From positions 128,001 through 192,000 of IMG/VR virus record IMGVR_UViG_3300010965_000001: DNA of 64,000 nt. One strand, 5' to 3'. Source of the DNA: a virus (taxonomy: Duplodnaviria > Caudoviricetes). The notes under the pieces are model-generated. The model did no database searches, was not told the origin of the DNA, and saw nothing but the letters and a program-made list of their open reading frames with translations. Shown in pieces: positions 1,957 through 62,395 of this stretch (position 1 is its first letter; each line of letters starts with the position of its first letter). The position numbers and the translations under genes are program-made.

Positions 1957-4900
1957 TTAGAAATTCTGTGCTGACGCACCATATGTAAGTGAACCAACAC
2001 ATATAAATGTGTAAATATCTGTTTTACTTGTCGTAGCTGACGCTGTTGTTTGTGTTGGAACCGTGCCGCCCTTCCAAGTAATCGTTGCAGGCCACGATGC
2101 TGTAAATGCACTTGCCGAATTTGTCAGTATCACATTTAATGTTTGACCACTTGATGTGTTGCTAAATGTAAGTGTAGAATGTTGCGTAAGTTTTCGTGTA
2201 AACGTATTCCCAAGTGACCAATCGACATCAACGGCTGACATAGATACGGTTGACCCTATGACAGATTTTGATATAATTAAACTACCAGCGATTGCTTGAT
2301 TACCACTAAATGCATTAGAAGTTAACGTAGCAAACGAACCAGTTTGGTCACTCTTAACAAAGAATGACGCACTTACTACACTTAGTGGATTACCAAGTGA
2401 ACCATCTCCAGATAAAGTCGCATCCGTGACAACTGCTGATAGATAATTTCCAGCACTAACCGTTGTCTGACTGTATCTACTTCCAAGTAATTTATCAGTT
2501 TGAATTACACTCCAGTCATTTGCTCCAGTTTCCCGTATAATCACTCTCGCAACAAATACAAATTCTGGTATCATCGTGGATATTGCCGTAGTATTCAAAC
2601 TTGATGGAGTCAATGCTTGAATTGTCGATAGTGTAGTACTTTGTGTTTGCCCGTGGAACCATACATATCTGTATTTTTGTGACTCGGTATCAGATGTAAC
2701 GGGAACTGCAACTAACCATATCGTAGCATATGCGTTGTTTGGTAATGTCGTTCTTTGCCATACCGTGCCAGTATATTGATTGTACGTTGCACTAATTCCA
2801 CTAACAGGTACGAATTCTGCCGATTCGGTCTGGAATGAACCAGTTCCATTTACACCACTTCCAGTCAAATAGAATAACGTATAAGAGCCAGATAATGCAG
2901 TTAGATTGGTTGCAAGGTCTTCATCTTTGATGGTGGCGATTGACATGGTTGGTCTACGAAGTGAAGGTGTAACGGAATTAAGCGTTAAACCACTCACATC
3001 TGCACCAGAACTTAGATACGTTCCAACTGTAGTATGAATTGCTTCATGTACTTGCCATTGCATTAAACCATGAACTTCACGTAGTGCAAACTTATCAGTT
3101 GAAGAATAACGTACCACTGCTATTTGTAATTTATCAAACGTCCACGGAGTTTGTGACCATGTATATGAAGCACCATCATATGATAAGAACCACGTTCCTT
3201 CTGTTGTATCATGTATAGATGATGTCCATCCACTAACCAATTCCTGTATAACTTGACCTTGCCAGTATGCTACTACCGTTCCAGTCAATACTATCTGACG
3301 TGAACCACTATATGTGACTATTATTGATGTAGGATTAACAAATCCAGTTGGGTCTTTGGTTACTTCGTTCATTGTATAGTATGATGCACTTTGTGCCATA
3401 ATTGCATATGATGAAGTACCAAGTAACGACCCAGTTATTCCCGCCGCAACATTTAATGAACCAGTAACCTGTACTATGTCTCCATAAACACGCATCGGAT
3501 AACTAAATACTCCCGCAGTTGCTACACCAAACCTCATAAATCCATTATTATCTACACCATTCCTAAACGTACCAATAGAACCAATAAAATTTTCTGTTGA
3601 ACCACTCTGTAACGTAAATGTCATACTGGAACCGAACCCGTTTACCATTGTATTGTTGGTATGTGCTCTTAATGTTAAAGTTCCTGTTTCACTGTTACCA
3701 GCCGTGTTGGCACGTTGTACCCTCAAAGGTGGGAACGTATCACTAACAAAGTATCCCTTGCCAGCCACATTCAAAGAACCACTGATAATTTCATTCCCAA
3801 CAAATATGTTAGAACCAGTTGTTGCGAATACACTTGTGTCGATTGTGGGTGCCCAACTTGCAGATACTGCATATGATGCACTTTCTGCCAATCCCAACAA
3901 TATGCTTGCGGTTGCAGCATATGATGCAGATACTACTAAGCCCGCACCAGTTGAAACTACAATCTCACCAGTAAATCTTCCATCGGGAATTTCAGATACT
4001 AAAATATCTACCGTAGTTGGACTTGTCTGCCGAATAGTATCTACACCAACTTGCTCATAATATCCACTGCTACTGTCCCACAACGATATTAATAATTCTT
4101 TTGAATTTAAATTATGTACAAATGATTGAGTGTAATATGGTGATGCCAATCCCCACGACGAAGATAAAAATGTTGCTGTATACGATGACCCAGGAAATCC
4201 TGCTCCACCACTTCCACCGTTAAGTGCATATGATGCTGTAAGTGCATACGATGCTGAAATAGATGAACCACCAGGTGCCCACGATGCGCTTAACGCATAT
4301 GATGAACTCAATACCAACATAGAACTTGTTGATACTGCTGATAAAAATCCCGTATGACCTGAACTTGCATAATCTAAATTAGTCAAGTCACTATGTGCAG
4401 TTACTCCAGTTGCTGAAAAATGAATATCAAATGCACTATCAACTTGTATTGCAGTTGATACACCTTCTTGGACAATTATACGTCCTACCAATATTCCCAT
4501 AGATGCTATTCCAGGAGGAATAGAAGATGGTGGTTGTGCTGCCTGTGCATCTGATAGTTTATTGGCGTTCAATGTTCCTAATAAAACACATGCATTGTTA
4601 TAAATAGAACTAGTGGGTCCACTTTGAATGTGGCGATATACCCAATGAGTATTATAATTATTATTACTTAACGATGCCGTAGTTATACCATTGTCATATG
4701 ATGATGAATTGAACGTACTTCCAGTAACATGCGTCCAAGCACTTGCGGAATGATAATATGTGTAAATTTTCTCTGTGTTAGGTAATATTTCTAATAATGT
4801 ATGACGAACAACACCCAACCACACTTTACCTTCTGTAACTGTAACATATGAACCAGTAGTCGATACTATTAATCCACTCTCTCTCGCGTATCGTTGAGTC

Positions 4901-42207: not shown

Positions 42208-42374
42208 ATAAATATAACGAATTGTTTGTTTTATGCGTCAAAAACATTGTCTAACCAGTCATAATTAACTTTTTTTGGCGAATTAATATAATAAGCCATT
42301 ACAAGTACTATGACGATTGGACATATGATTGTGGCGATAACTATTGCCGATATTTTTTTCATAAGTTGCCTCGG

Positions 42375-42755
42375 TGGACTAGGAGGGGTTCGAACCCTCG
42401 TGTTGAACAAACACCAATTAAAAGACTACATGCTTAGTTTGATTCTGCGGAACGTCATAAACTTGTAAGAATCTAACAAGATACAAGAAAATCTATTCTG
42501 CTTTTGAATGGTACAGATAAACCATTTGTATCTACAACGTCTTATTTTTTGTTCTGACTAAGGTAAATAAGAACCTTAGGCTGCGTACGCGTATTCGGCG
42601 TTCACTGCTTCACCCATGATGAACGCCATAGCATCATCAAATGTGAATGAAGATTTCTCTTCTGCGTTTATTTGTTTTGCACCTTTTAAAGAGTTTATTG
42701 CTCCCTCTGCATGCCTTCTAATCTATACTTATCCAGTCGATTCCATATCTAGCCC
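42375..42755 (-). ncRNA. ssrA: tmRNA
   Basis: 5' GGGCTAG pairs with 3' CTAGTCC-A with G3-U70; T-arm GGGTTCGAACCC; D-like GAATCGAC; tag frame 42665-42576 AEEKSSFTFDDAMAFIMGEAVNAEYAYAA*. Confidence 0.92.
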
Positions 42756-45214: not shown

Positions 45215-45290
45215 TGGAGCGAGCCGAAGGAATTGAACCTCCATCCTCATGCTGGATTTAGCATGCCATCTTAACATTAGACGAAGCCCG
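45215..45290 (-). tRNA. tRNA with Gly-type body and atypical anticodon loop (TAATCCA)
   Basis: GCGGGCT/GGCTCGC, U73, encoded CCA; stem CATGC/GCATG. Confidence 0.7.
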
Positions 45291-45306
45291 CATATGTAAC
45301 TGTAAT

Positions 45307-45567: not shown

Positions 45568-45820
45568 CGTTGTTTACATCAAACACGACACCACCTGCAT
45601 TAGCACCCTTACCGAAATTTTTCCGTACATAATTTTCGAAGGACGCCCATGCCTCATTTGCAATCTTCATAGCGTCTTCACTGTTAAGGTCAAAATATTT
45701 GGAGAATGTTTCGGATTTGTAAAGGGAAATGAGAAGTAATCCCTTTGGGGTCAGTGTATACTTTGGTTCTTCTGCGGGTTCACCGTCTGTCGGTTCCACA
45801 TAATCATCATCTAAGTTCAT
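45506..45820 (-). CDS. Acidic hypothetical protein
   Basis: Start moved to MNLDDDY after GGAG; longer ORF overlaps a tRNA. Confidence 0.55.
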   Translation of the reverse strand: MNLDDDYVEPTDGEPAEEPKYTLTPKGLLLISLYKSETFSKYFDLNSEDAMKIANEAWASFENYVRKNFGKGANAGGVVFDVNNGEFYSIGVQGINGDGDEDDD

Positions 45821-45842: not shown

Positions 45843-45920
45843 TGGTATCCCGAATAGGATTTGAACCTACATTCTCCAATTATGCACCTATCGTTTAGGA
45901 AACGCGGCCAATATCGGGAC
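45843..45920 (-). tRNA. Atypical tRNA-Arg(CCT) lacking a canonical D-arm
   Basis: Acceptor GTCCCGA/TCGGGAT+ACCA, T-arm, loop TT-CCT-AA. Confidence 0.65.
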
Positions 45921-45991: not shown

Positions 45992-46618
45992 ATGAAAATT
46001 AATTGTGCATATTGTGGTAAAGAAACTGATAAACGCCCATGTAGAGCAAAGGTTGAAAATAATTGTTGCTCTATTCAATGTAAACATTTATTAATGACAA
46101 CTAAATTGTTAGTTCATTGCTTACATTGTAATTTTGAATTTTATAAAAAACAATCCGAAATAAAAAAATCTAATAAACATTTCTGTAGTAAATCGTGTGC
46201 TGCAAGTTATAACAATACACACAAAACCAAAGGAAATCGAAGGTCTAAACTTGAGTCATGGATTCAATCTAAATTAACTGAAATATATCCAAATTTAGAA
46301 ATCCACTACAATCGAACTGACACAATTGATGCTGAACTTGACATCTATATTCCATCATTAAAACTTGCATTTGAATTAAATGGAATTTTTCATTATGAAC
46401 CAATTTACAGTCAATCTAAATTAGAACGAACCAAAATGAATGATTCCAAGAAATTCGTAGCATGTCATCAGCATGACATTGGATTTTGTGTAATAGATAC
46501 ATCAAAACAAAAATATTTTAAAGAACAAACTTCATTGCAATATCTGAAAATAATTACAGATATAATCAGTAGGCACGGAGAGACTCGAACTCTCATGGTT
46601 TTACCCGCAACGGTCTAA
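45992..46618 (+). CDS. Free-standing homing endonuclease-like protein (Cys-rich zinc repeats + Vsr/DUF559-type domain)
   Basis: CxxC..FCSxxC repeats; ELDIYIPSLKLAFELNGIFH; inverted within tRNA array. Confidence 0.75.
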   Translation: MKINCAYCGKETDKRPCRAKVENNCCSIQCKHLLMTTKLLVHCLHCNFEFYKKQSEIKKSNKHFCSKSCAASYNNTHKTKGNRRSKLESWIQSKLTEIYPNLEIHYNRTDTIDAELDIYIPSLKLAFELNGIFHYEPIYSQSKLERTKMNDSKKFVACHQHDIGFCVIDTSKQKYFKEQTSLQYLKIITDIISRHGETRTLMVLPATV

Positions 46619-48641: not shown

Positions 48642-48761
48642 ATTAAATATCTCCCTTTTCAGATTTGCCGTATTTAATAAAACAAACAATGCCGACGATT
48701 ACTGCAATGGATGTTATCGTACCCAAAAATGATTTCCATAGTATAACCTTTTATTGTATAG

Positions 48762-48833
48762 TATTCTCAGTTGGAATCGAACCAACATTAGAGGTTTAGA
48801 AGACCGCTGTCCTATCCGTTGAACGATGAGAAC
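48762..48833 (-). tRNA. tRNA-Arg(TCT)
   Basis: Cloverleaf. Confidence 0.9.
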
Positions 48834-48845
48834 ATATTATTTCAG

Positions 48846-48921
48846 TAGGCGTGGTAGGAGTCGAACCCACCTAACAAGGAGATATAAGCTCCTTTCCTGC
48901 AACCACGCTTGATTCACGCCC
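48846..48921 (-). tRNA. tRNA-Ile(TAT)
   Basis: AGGAG/CTCCT stem, loop CT-TAT-AT. Confidence 0.8.
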
Positions 48922-52646: not shown

Positions 52647-52744
52647 AACATTTATCAATTTTAAAGGTAATCGACATTAGTATGTAACAACATAACTCGT
52701 GTAGTTAGAGGTTTGTCAGGATACTACTCCACAATTACCAATTG

Positions 52745-52822
52745 TACACACAGAAGGACTCGAACCTTCATTTTCAACCATTACCTATAGTCCCGCGTAT
52801 CAGACGGGCTGGATATGTGTGC
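52745..52822 (-). tRNA. Atypical tRNA-Ile(GAT) lacking a canonical D-arm
   Basis: GCACACA/TGTGTGT, CCCGT-CTGATAC-GCGGG, canonical T-arm. Confidence 0.7.
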
Positions 52823-55197: not shown

Positions 55198-55220
55198 AAT
55201 ATAACCTTTATGTTGTTCTG

Positions 55221-55311
55221 CGGAAAAGAGAGGATTCGAACCCCCAACCCAGCTTTCGCCAAGAACTGTTTTCGAGACAGTAGCGGTCATCCAGTTACGC
55301 TTTACTCTTCC
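55221..55311 (-). tRNA. tRNA-Ser(CGA)
   Basis: Cloverleaf, long V arm. Confidence 0.9.
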
Positions 55312-55925: not shown

Positions 55926-56056
55926 AGTATATTCAGTTATGCGATAGTGAACAGTAATTAAACCTTTACCTCCATAACTCGTTTTGAGTGAGTCAGCGCT
56001 CTGATTTGAACAGGCGATTCGTAGCGTGCAAGGCTCGCGAGGTTTCTCATATTTTG

Positions 56057-56136
56057 TAGACTTGATAGGATTTGAACCTACATTTTCAGCTCCAGTTACG
56101 ATTAAATGTTTCGAAGACATACTCGGCTACAAGTCC
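56057..56136 (-). tRNA. Atypical tRNA-Arg(TCG) lacking a canonical D-arm
   Basis: GGACTTG/CAAGTCT, ATGT-CTTCGAA-ACAT, canonical T-arm. Confidence 0.65.
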
Positions 56137-56476: not shown

Positions 56477-57076
56477 ATGAAAATACCAATTATATGTGAT
56501 TATTGTGGAAATCCGTCAACAAAATTAAAATATAGCATTACACGATATAAAAATCATTTCTGCTCCAATACCTGTGCTTCCATGTTTCATAGGAATAAAA
56601 TTGAAGTAGAATGTAAATTTTGTGGAAATAAATTTCTAAAATTTGCAAATCAACTAAAAAAACATCCAAACAGTTTTTGTAATAAATCATGTGCTGCTAA
56701 ATACAACAACACACATAAAACACATGGGTCATCTCGTTCTAAACTTGAAGTGTGGTTGGAAAACGAACTTATTACATTATATCCAACTTTGGATTTTCAT
56801 TTCAATCGTAAAGATGCCATCAATTCTGAACTCGACATTTATATTCCATCGTTAAAACTTGCATTTGAACTAAATGGAATCTTTCATTTTGAACCAATTT
56901 TTAGTGAATCTGGGTTAAAGCGAACCAAAGAAAACGATTCAAAAAAATTTAAATTATGCCATGACAATGGAATCAGTTTATGTGTAATCGACACTTCAAA
57001 ACAAAAATATTTTAAAGAACAAACTTCATTACAATATCTAAAAATAATTACAGATATTATTAATATGAAAGTTTAA
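56477..57076 (+). CDS. Free-standing homing endonuclease-like protein, paralog of 45992-46618
   Basis: Near-identical C-terminus ELDIYIPSLKLAFELNGIFH..VIDTSKQKYFKEQTSLQYLKIITDII. Confidence 0.75.
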   Translation: MKIPIICDYCGNPSTKLKYSITRYKNHFCSNTCASMFHRNKIEVECKFCGNKFLKFANQLKKHPNSFCNKSCAAKYNNTHKTHGSSRSKLEVWLENELITLYPTLDFHFNRKDAINSELDIYIPSLKLAFELNGIFHFEPIFSESGLKRTKENDSKKFKLCHDNGISLCVIDTSKQKYFKEQTSLQYLKIITDIINMKV

Positions 57077-58477: not shown

Positions 58478-58495
58478 TGTTTTTCTTTCTGTTTG

Positions 58496-58573
58496 TAGGA
58501 AGAGATGGATTCGAACCATCAGTCTCCGAGTCAATGATTCCCCGGCGTTTTGCGCTTATTAAACTATCTGCCT
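58496..58573 (-). tRNA. tRNA-like gene with 10-nt anticodon loop (GAATCATTGA)
   Basis: Canonical T-arm, CCGGG/CTCGG stem. Confidence 0.55.
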
Positions 58574-59341: not shown

Positions 59342-59431
59342 TGGGGTGACGAGTGGAATTTGAATCCACGATAGGGTATTATCCCAACGAGGGCCACAAC
59401 CTCGCGCAATTGACCGCTCTGCCATCGTCAC
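59342..59431 (-). tRNA. tRNA-His(GTG) with long variable arm and encoded CCA
   Basis: CGAGG-TTGTGGC-CCTCG, C73. Confidence 0.8.
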
Positions 59432-61519: not shown

Positions 61520-62395
61520 AAAAGGTTGAGAGATTACACCTTCTACGCATTTCCTTTTCGTAGATTATAGTGACCTTGCGGGTCAGTTTCCTACTTTCTC
61601 CACCAGCGTTCAGCTCGAGTAGAAATGCATGACTTCCGTTGTTTTTAACGGTGACGGTACCGATATGTATGAGCCTACTCAATCCTTGTCAATTCTCCCT
61701 GCCTTGCGAGCAGTTAATCCTTGCGGGGAATAGATGCAGACTTGAATTAAATTCCTACGCCTTGCGGGTTTCAGAACTCTCCATTCCTTTCGGTGGAGAT
61801 TTAAGCCATTTTTGTTCTCATACATGACCACGACTTTGCTGTTTTTAATTGTCTTGGGATTTGAACCCAATCTTTAGTTCCATATACTAACGCTCAACCA
61901 TTTGAGCTAAGACTGTGCAACTCACAAAAGACGTGCGTGGTCAGTGGTTCCATTCTCTTTTGGAAAACGATATGCCACACGCCCTGTATCTTTCGTCTGC
62001 TCGACTACTCAACGGATTTTCAAGATTTTGGTGCTTATGGAACAACCACACCAACACCAACCTCTTTCAATCTAAATAGAAGCCCTTATTTTGCATCACT
62101 CGGACAACTACTCTCCCCTTCATTTCTCGTTCATCGTCTCGTTTGGTATCTGCTTACTCGGCACCACCCGCTAGTCCAGTCCTACGGAGTTACCCTCGGT
62201 CTGTTCGCAGCGAAACTTCTGACATACTTCCAGCAGGATTAGTGGCTGAAAGACTCCGAAACTCGGTTTGCATAAGTGACCAATTGAGATTGGCGACGCC
62301 CTGTGAGCGGGTTAAGTCTTTTACCATATTACTACGGCTTATCTTCTCCCTTGCGGGAATGGATGTCATACCACCCATTTTAAACTTTATAATTC
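61520..62395 (-). ncRNA. Large ornate ncRNA, GOLLD-like
   Basis: About 870 nt with no credible ORF, five C-GCAA-G hairpins, embedded tRNA-like domain, own sigma70 promoter, U-rich 3' end; family call not confirmed by a covariance model. Confidence 0.65.

Follow-up and report, generated by a model that had tools for sequence, protein, structure and literature searches.

The window considered here is a stretch of 64,000 nucleotides (nt) of Caudoviricetes DNA (positions 128,001 to 192,000 of the IMG/VR record IMGVR_UViG_3300010965_000001), within a virus record of 210,562 bp with 38% G+C. On its minus strand, at 45843..45920, it carries a gene of 78 nt, including an encoded CCA, that reads as a tRNA-Arg(CCU) whose inner segments follow an order different from that of the cloverleaf; we refer to it as the rewired tRNA-Arg(CCU) gene. 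In a first inspection, made without database searches (the original prediction), it had been described as a tRNA-Arg(CCU)-type gene in which an anticodon hairpin with the loop TTCCTAA stands ahead of a D-loop-type segment; this description holds, and so does the sequence as it was then written. In what follows, RNA positions (p) are obtained by subtracting the window coordinate from 45921, so that p1 is 45920, and all parts of the gene lie on the minus strand.

The acceptor stem is formed by p1-7 (45914..45920) and p68-74 (45847..45853), with seven pairs of which G1.U74 is a wobble. It is followed by U8 and A9 (45912..45913), present as TA in 55/55 core-family sequences and never part of any search pattern. 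Next comes the first strand of a long-range D stem, p10-12 (45909..45911, corresponding to canonical 22-24), whose second strand, p36-39 (45882..45885, canonical 10-13), is located beyond the anticodon hairpin; this stem is indicated by the covariation of 11-38 and 12-37. G36 is probably bulged in the core subfamily, and its equivalent is Watson-Crick paired in the copies of the phages Francob and Braelyn. The anticodon hairpin, p16-30 (45891..45905), consists of G16.A30, three Watson-Crick pairs (17-19/27-29) and a loop of 7 nt with U33 and A37 that exposes the anticodon CCT (CCU, 45897..45899), which reads AGG. A weak anticodon stem of 3 bp had been pointed out from the start, and only three Watson-Crick pairs do lie next to the loop; the helix is lengthened by the G.A pair and by p13-15 (45906..45908), which pair with p33-35 (45886-45888) according to an RNAalifold prediction, leaving a 2-nt bulge at p31-32 (45889..45890) that is hypervariable family-wide. 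The junction strand p40-50 (45871..45881) carries the relocated D-loop motif (A14 R15 Y16 Y17 G18 G19 A20), as which the AATTGGA found 3' of the anticodon hairpin can be read, and then two to three variable nucleotides, an A similar to A21 and a U similar to Y48. The T arm, p51-67 (45854..45870), has a 5-bp stem (51-55/63-67) and the loop TTCAAAT, which is of the TTCRANY type, and matches the Rfam tRNA model. The gene ends with the discriminator A75 and the encoded CCA, p76-78 (45843..45846), which is consistent with a mature tRNA-like product, as had been suggested.

The 26 nt from p10 to p35 equal in length the canonical positions 22-47, and can be read as the 3' strand of the D stem, position 26, the anticodon arm and bases of the variable loop. 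Likewise, p36-49 read as the 5' strand of the D stem followed by the D-loop (A14, R15, Y16, Y17, G18, G19 and A20 to A21), and p50 is a base of the Y48 type, after which a normal T arm begins. As read from the sequence, the two blocks located between A9 and the T stem, canonical 22-47 and 10-21, thus stand in reversed order with respect to every ordinary tRNA. Given this reversal, the D stem is short and long-range, its two strands closing around the anticodon arm. D stem and anticodon arm are predicted to stack into one composite arm of approximately 10 layers; in the cloverleaf, the same number is reached by the D stem and the anticodon stem together with the 26.44 pair between them. The D-loop bases A14, R15, G18, G19 and A20 lie on the single strand that leads from the composite arm into the T stem, and the fold is nested, with a three-way junction and, in the core subfamily, no pseudoknot. 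In the structure of yeast tRNA-Phe, the new joints (9-22, 44-47 to 10, and 21-48) link residues that are located in adjacent layers of the core; from this proximity, the rewired RNA would still be expected to fold into an L shape. The arrangement had originally been described as a swap of arms. The departure from the cloverleaf order stands, but the units exchanged are the segments 10-21 and 22-47 and not two hairpin arms, the hairpin that this would require at 36-39/49-52 being refuted by covariation in the T stem (see below).

The family and the covariation of its helices

When 2 kb around the element were compared by blastn with cultured phages, the element alone was matched, in two Alishewanella phages. 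The Alishewanella copy, annotated as tRNA-Ser, has acceptor and T stems that are wholly different yet paired, an inner region of 36 nt that is near-identical, and a small hairpin with a compensatory change. Pattern scans of viral contigs and metagenomes, in which a different block was freed each time, yielded 55 distinct core-family sequences (alignment A2). Divergent members were added by blastn with divergent queries, i.e., approximately 40 Streptomyces phages, Rhodococcus phage NiceHouse, Pseudomonas phage vB_PsaM_M1 and an uncultured phage of 635 kb. A total of 75 distinct sequences of the same layout, the core family of 55 included, was obtained from phages of Streptomyces, Rhodococcus, Pseudomonas and Alishewanella, from the 635-kb phage, from IMG/VR and from metagenomes. 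A pattern scan of 185,579 species genomes gave four copies, all of them on contigs of metagenome-assembled genomes and one within an array of nine tRNAs. The family is borne almost wholly by phage DNA. Across it, the acceptor and T stems diverge freely yet stay paired, and CCA is encoded in 48 of the 75 members. Positions 10-16 and 35-39 are near-invariant in the core subfamily; pattern scans that freed these positions, or the loop, found no new core-family variants in viral contigs, and the covarying variants were reached only by blastn with divergent members.

Regarding the annotation of these copies, that of Alishewanella phage Slicko01 (L001:2987-3065) is labelled 'tRNA-Ser' and that of Streptomyces phage Mildred21 (L104:1501-1575) 'tRNA-OTHER', while in NiceHouse a 46-codon 'hypothetical protein' (L105:1456-1596) is drawn over the family member; all three are likely misannotations. 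Most other copies in cultured phages are unannotated in GenBank. In a 194-kb IMG/VR contig, a group I intron (L037:172-407; RF00028, 108.7 bits) is located just upstream of the rewired tRNA-Arg, apparently in or beside the preceding tRNA.

Three folds were compared on alignment A2. With the segment-swapped model, 92% of the cells are paired versus 75% in shuffles, a statistic inflated by the presence of related sequences. Without guidance, RNAalifold recovered the acceptor stem, the T stem, 17-19/27-29 and 13-15/33-35. All seven acceptor pairs vary on both sides family-wide, with 97% of the cells paired. The long-range D-stem pairs are invariant in the core family, and therefore it is the divergent members that decide. 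A covariance model was built from A2 and used to align 77 members of the layout (alignment A3), so that A3 is fitted to the model; the key pair changes can be seen by eye in the LR745206, Francob, Enygma and Braelyn copies. In A3, p11-p38 is UA in 65 members, CG in 9 and AU in 1, and p12-p37 is GC in 67, CG in 4, AU in 2 and UA in 2; these pairs, U11-A38 and G12-C37 in the window gene, are never broken, and p10-p39 is mostly unpaired. The pair p13-p35 occurs as GU (58), GC (7), AU (2), CG (2) and UA (1). In the anticodon stem, 17-29 and 19-27 show four pair types each with zero broken, and 18-28 changes on both sides and is never broken; at 16-30, the sole members without A at p30 (L044 and L060) have U.G or A-U. 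The five pairs of the T stem all covary, and 100% of their cells are paired on A2 and 99.5% on A3. As to the core bases, A14 is present in 75/75 members and the base before Y48 is A in 72, and R15/Y48 is A/U in 74 members and G/C in the remaining one, so that no mismatch occurs, this Levitt-type covariation being a single event (sequence L037).

These data bear on two other ways of drawing the RNA. One is a strict two-hairpin reading, with a 5-bp anticodon arm (15-19/27-31) and a true D hairpin (36-39/49-52). It can appeal to the fact that, in the 45843-45920 copy, a 4-bp stem closing a loop of the D type can be drawn from p36-52, and that 38-50 and 39-49 are near-invariant A-U pairs; however, p51 and p52 covary perfectly with their T-stem partners p67 and p66, which breaks the D-like stem in 7 and 12 sequences. 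In addition, 15-31 is unpaired in 43/55 and 16-30 in 53/55, and the change of U50 to C in L037 breaks 38-50 and keeps a pair with G41; we regard this structure as very improbable. The other is a cloverleaf in the ordinary order, with an odd D arm at 10-13/23-26 and an anticodon arm at 28-44 (UGC, Ala), or else a decayed pseudogene. The distance from A9 to the T stem is indeed that of a class I tRNA and the 4-bp helix 10-13/23-26 can be drawn, but three of the five anticodon-stem pairs are then unpaired in 15, 20 and 35 of the 55 sequences, the loop has no U33, and the covariation of 19-27 and 17-29 is left unexplained. Decay, for its part, does not agree with the existence of 75 distinct relatives, all fully paired, in phages that infect Actinobacteria and Proteobacteria. 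Neither variant has any chance worth the name.

The standard programs for tRNA detection do not report this gene. ARAGORN makes no call on 45843-45920 in its default, relaxed, intron or mitochondrial modes; on the window it reports 34 tRNAs and one transfer-messenger RNA (tmRNA), all on the minus strand, and among the family loci its call is correct in 0/74. The Rfam tRNA model (RF00005) gives 26.5 bits, below the gathering score of 29, with an alignment that passes over the D and anticodon arms as local gaps and uses only the acceptor stem, U8 A9, the T arm with the bases immediately preceding it, and the discriminator. Both results are accounted for by the different order of the inner 41 nt. 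Among 20 relatives, 5 exceed the Rfam threshold, at 29-34 bits, and 15 are missed. With the family model R1, on the other hand, the full-length gene scores 82.8 bits versus 34 bits at most for canonical tRNAs. Judged on sequence grounds, 45843-45920 is a real gene and not a chance tRNA look-alike, because the Rfam match of acceptor stem, T arm and discriminator, together with 75 distinct relatives that show compensatory changes in every helix, places it far beyond chance.

The origin of the layout can be approached from the Streptomyces phages. Phage Wofford carries a tRNA-Gly(gcc), an ordinary tRNA-Arg(tct), three small genes and a tRNA-Ala(tgc); in Mildred21 this series recurs, the rewired gene replacing the tRNA-Arg. 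The T arms of the Streptomyces rewired gene and of its sister, the ordinary tRNA-Arg(tct), are identical, and swapping the segments 10-21 and 22-47 of the Wofford tRNA-Arg(tct) gives the Francob/Enygma gene, helix for helix. Given the shared site, the identical T arms and the outcome of this swap, a single segment swap in a tRNA-Arg(UCU) would be the simplest origin.

Arginine identity and proposed function

The identity set of bacterial tRNA-Arg comprises A20, C35, U or G at 36 and A or G at 73 (PMC9976931, Table 1). The anticodon CCU and the discriminator A give the rewired gene of the window C35, U36 and A73. Family-wide, all Arg members have C35 and U36 or G36, and the discriminator is A in 40, G in 32 and U in 3 (A or G in 72/75); the base after GG, a candidate for the A20 pocket, is A in 74/74 Arg members and U in the sole Ile member. 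The anticodons are TCT (58), ACG (7), TCG (6), CCT (4) and GAT (1), and the loop around each of them is the usual one; only the wobble base and base 36 vary, always among Arg anticodons except for the one Ile GAU.

The family also fits into the tRNA repertoires of its carriers. None of 76 odd genes shares its anticodon with the canonical tRNAs of its own locus (312 in all), whereas shuffling of the labels gives a mean of 4.1 duplicates (P = 0.0016, related loci being non-independent). Neighbouring tRNAs are on the same strand in 310/310 cases and often only 1-11 nt away. In an uncultured phage (locus L034), three rewired Arg genes at 3329-3407, 3522-3600 and 4778-4861 (UCU, ACG and UCG) are accompanied by 14 canonical tRNAs, none of them for Arg, and Slicko01 has no annotated tRNA-Arg; some phages draw all their Arg tRNAs from the rewired family. 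No ArgRS gene was found in five complete genomes of carrier phages, and therefore the host enzyme would have to serve.

In the record that contains the window, all 34 canonical tRNAs lie within the window; Arg(tct), at 48761-48833, and Arg(gcg) are present and Arg(cct) is absent. No other family locus has a canonical tct; the core-family copy here is one of the four readers of CCT. AGA makes up 36% of the Arg codons of the phage and AGG 6%. From this body of evidence we consider it likely that 45843-45920 is a working tRNA-Arg(CCU) of non-cloverleaf structure, built on the plan of this large and almost wholly phage-borne family, that reads AGG and is charged by the host ArgRS. According to this proposal, the rewired RNA would be cut from its transcript like its tRNA neighbours, would be charged by the host ArgRS through A20, C35, U36 and A73, and would decode AGG on the ribosome, complementing the ordinary tRNA-Arg(UCU) of the phage.

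Several points weigh against this interpretation. Besides the inflated shuffle statistics, the fitting of A3 to its model and the single event behind the R15/Y48 covariation, the invariance of the core family is largely imposed by the search patterns. The long-range D stem comprises only two sure pairs, and in this copy the stem adjacent to the anticodon loop has only three Watson-Crick pairs and the G.A. The folding energy of the single sequence is uninformative (z = -0.28), and the proposed fold lies 2.8 kcal/mol above the minimum free energy. Furthermore, the phage makes little use of AGG (2.3 per 1000 codons), and the copy, which stands beside a homing-endonuclease-like gene, could be a recent passenger.

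This last point leads to the idea that the family is functional elsewhere and that the 45843-45920 copy is an inactive or dispensable passenger brought by a homing-endonuclease cassette. The gene lies outside the main tRNA array, 72 nt from the divergent homing-endonuclease-like open reading frame (ORF) 45992-46618. It encodes CCA, unlike 38 of the 41 tRNA-like genes in the window, which suggests that it may have been imported from a CCA-encoding lineage; both these features and the rarity of AGG would fit a passenger. Nevertheless, every helix and conserved core base is intact, the score on the family model is 82.8 bits, and CCU differs from the usual UCU exactly so as to avoid the canonical tRNA-Arg(UCU) of the phage, which points to selection; a passenger of this kind seems to us quite unlikely. 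Regarding the encoded CCA, the original prediction counted four such tRNA genes; our count is three (45843-45920, 45218-45291 and His-GTG at 59345-59431).

It may also be considered that the RNA only imitates a tRNA: it would be produced, perhaps even charged, and take no part in decoding, acting for example as a decoy for a host nuclease directed at tRNA-Arg or as a sponge or regulator of ArgRS or of another tRNA-binding factor. An altered core could impair use by the ribosome or EF-Tu while the surfaces recognised by enzymes stay, and, according to PMC10264068 and PMC11464382, phage tRNAs counter tRNA-targeting defences. A decoy for one nuclease, however, needs no four Arg anticodons in their proper loop contexts and has no reason to avoid duplicating the canonical tRNAs of its own locus. 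The odd genes are, moreover, the only Arg tRNAs in several large arrays, such as that of L034 (and Slicko01, as mentioned above), and in sister phages the corresponding site holds a canonical tRNA-Arg(UCU). A role confined to mimicry is in our view unlikely. Still less can be said for a tRNA-like leader that controls in cis the minus-strand ORF located downstream of it (ATG at 45820), to which we give a very faint chance. The CCA end lies 22 nt before the ribosome-binding site and start codon of that ORF, but elsewhere the same RNA is found within tRNA arrays, 1-11 nt from tRNAs and beside unrelated genes, and the ORF belongs to no Pfam or PHROG family.

Beyond the proposed decoding of AGG by this gene, a broader view would be that bacterial translation routinely uses phage-supplied tRNAs that are not cloverleaves. 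In this scheme their core would have been selected to escape defences or toxins that read the geometry of the D arm and anticodon stem in ordinary tRNA-Arg (and tRNA-Ile), the host synthetase would still read the relocated D-loop base, and the genes would spread with homing-endonuclease cassettes. Term searches of two papers gave no anti-phage tRNase aimed at tRNA-Arg or tRNA-Ile, leaving the defence-evasion idea without direct support, and we hold the scheme as a whole to be doubtful, if conceivable.

Other genes of the window

Two further genes of the window, both on the minus strand, share the rewired layout in a more diverged form. A rewired Arg(UCG) gene at 56054-56136 scores 45.8 bits with R1 and 34.8 bits with the Rfam tRNA model and is not called by ARAGORN; its T arm does not differ from the one in the CCU copy, and it is followed by CAA and not by CCA. 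A rewired Ile(GAU) gene of the same layout, at 52742-52822, scores 35.7 bits with R1 and has U after the GG motif, C4-G69 and A73; the window has no canonical tRNA-Ile(GAU).

The ORFs 45992-46618 and 56477-57076, both on the plus strand, are paralogues (58% identical) assigned to the PHROG homing/HNH endonuclease families 559, 3339 and 9084, and have no Pfam assignment. The first lies next to the rewired Arg(CCU) gene and overlaps, at its 3' end, a tRNA-Leu(tag) on the opposite strand; the second is located 340 nt from the rewired Arg(UCG) gene. Pfam gave no match for the two ORFs that flank 45843-45920, and a promoter scan found no consensus promoter directly upstream of the gene on the minus strand, the nearest candidate being at 46084-46056.

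Other tRNA-like genes, all on the minus strand, were also observed. The one at 45215-45291 (Rfam 34 bits, no ARAGORN call) has an encoded CCA, a U as discriminator and an irregular anticodon arm. ARAGORN also missed an Ile(UAU)-type gene with an odd D region (48843-48921), a Ser(CGA)-type gene with a long variable arm (55218-55311) and a gene with an irregular anticodon region (58493-58573). Between 46570 and 60940, the discriminator is followed by CAA in 29 of 41 tRNA-like genes and by CTA or CTG in five more; a role in processing may be considered for this conserved C-A-A trailer. The same strand carries a GOLLD RNA at 61523-61987 (RF02032, 180.5 bits) with an inner tRNA-like gene (61847-61916, His(atg) according to ARAGORN), and a phage tmRNA at 42372-42755 (111 bits) with a tag peptide of 29 residues.

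Significance and comparison with known systems

Should the rewired RNA prove to be charged and to serve on the ribosome, bacterial translation would not depend on tRNAs with the four-arm cloverleaf, and a second order of the strands would be able to give the same L-shaped core. The family would then represent a natural experiment on the features of a tRNA that are needed by ArgRS, EF-Tu, RNase P, the CCA-adding enzyme and the ribosome, as well as a new scaffold for the design of orthogonal tRNAs, and it would tie phage-host conflict, in a way that can be tested, to the question of why phages have tRNA genes. Because the finders miss or mislabel family members, phage tRNA repertoires and analyses of codon supply would be systematically short of decoders for Arg (and some for Ile). 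A search of open-access papers and preprints gave no description of the rewired layout; the closest systems are compared below.

With the canonical class I tRNA-Arg (RF00005), such as the tRNA-Arg(tct) found at the syntenic site in the Streptomyces phages Wofford and Blueeyedbeauty and the one of the window itself (48761-48833), the rewired gene shares the 7-bp acceptor stem, U8 A9, the T arm, the A/G discriminator and the CCA, the UCU-type anticodon loop, the D-loop motif with an A20-like base, the length, the number of layers and the position in the array. It differs in that 10-21 and 22-47 are reversed and no D hairpin follows positions 8-9; its D stem is long-range and encloses the anticodon arm, giving a three-way and not a four-way junction. 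The anticodon hairpin starts at 16-17, with three Watson-Crick pairs and the G.A, ahead of the D-loop motif, and there is no 5-bp stem at 27-31/39-43. In contrast with canonical tRNA-Arg, it is missed by ARAGORN and is at or below the Rfam threshold.

The permuted tRNA genes of the red alga Cyanidioschyzon merolae, which Soma and colleagues reportedly described in 2007, are said to have the 3' half before the 5' half, and a circular intermediate is said to restore the cloverleaf. Both systems depart from the cloverleaf order of the gene parts; in the rewired gene, however, the acceptor strands are at the termini and not internal. With the acceptor ends in this position, excision and circularisation cannot restore the canonical order, and therefore the mature RNA itself would be rewired.

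The D-armless mitochondrial tRNAs, e.g., metazoan mt-tRNA-Ser(AGY) and those of nematodes (PMC7609411), resemble the rewired tRNA in having no D hairpin between the acceptor and anticodon arms. They have lost G18 G19 and the elbow contacts and use specialised mitochondrial factors, whereas the rewired gene keeps the GG motif of the D-loop, A14, R15/Y48 and a canonical T loop in a relocated form and belongs to the setting of bacterial translation. Lastly, allo-tRNAs and tRNA-Sec have 8/4 or 9/3 acceptor/T branches (PMC5389517). Like the rewired family, they are natural and conserved departures from the 7/5 cloverleaf, found mainly in metagenomic or phage sequences and missed by the standard finders; nevertheless, in those tRNAs the lengths of the helices are changed and the order of the arms is kept, while the rewired family keeps the lengths of the acceptor branch and changes the order of the strands in the core.
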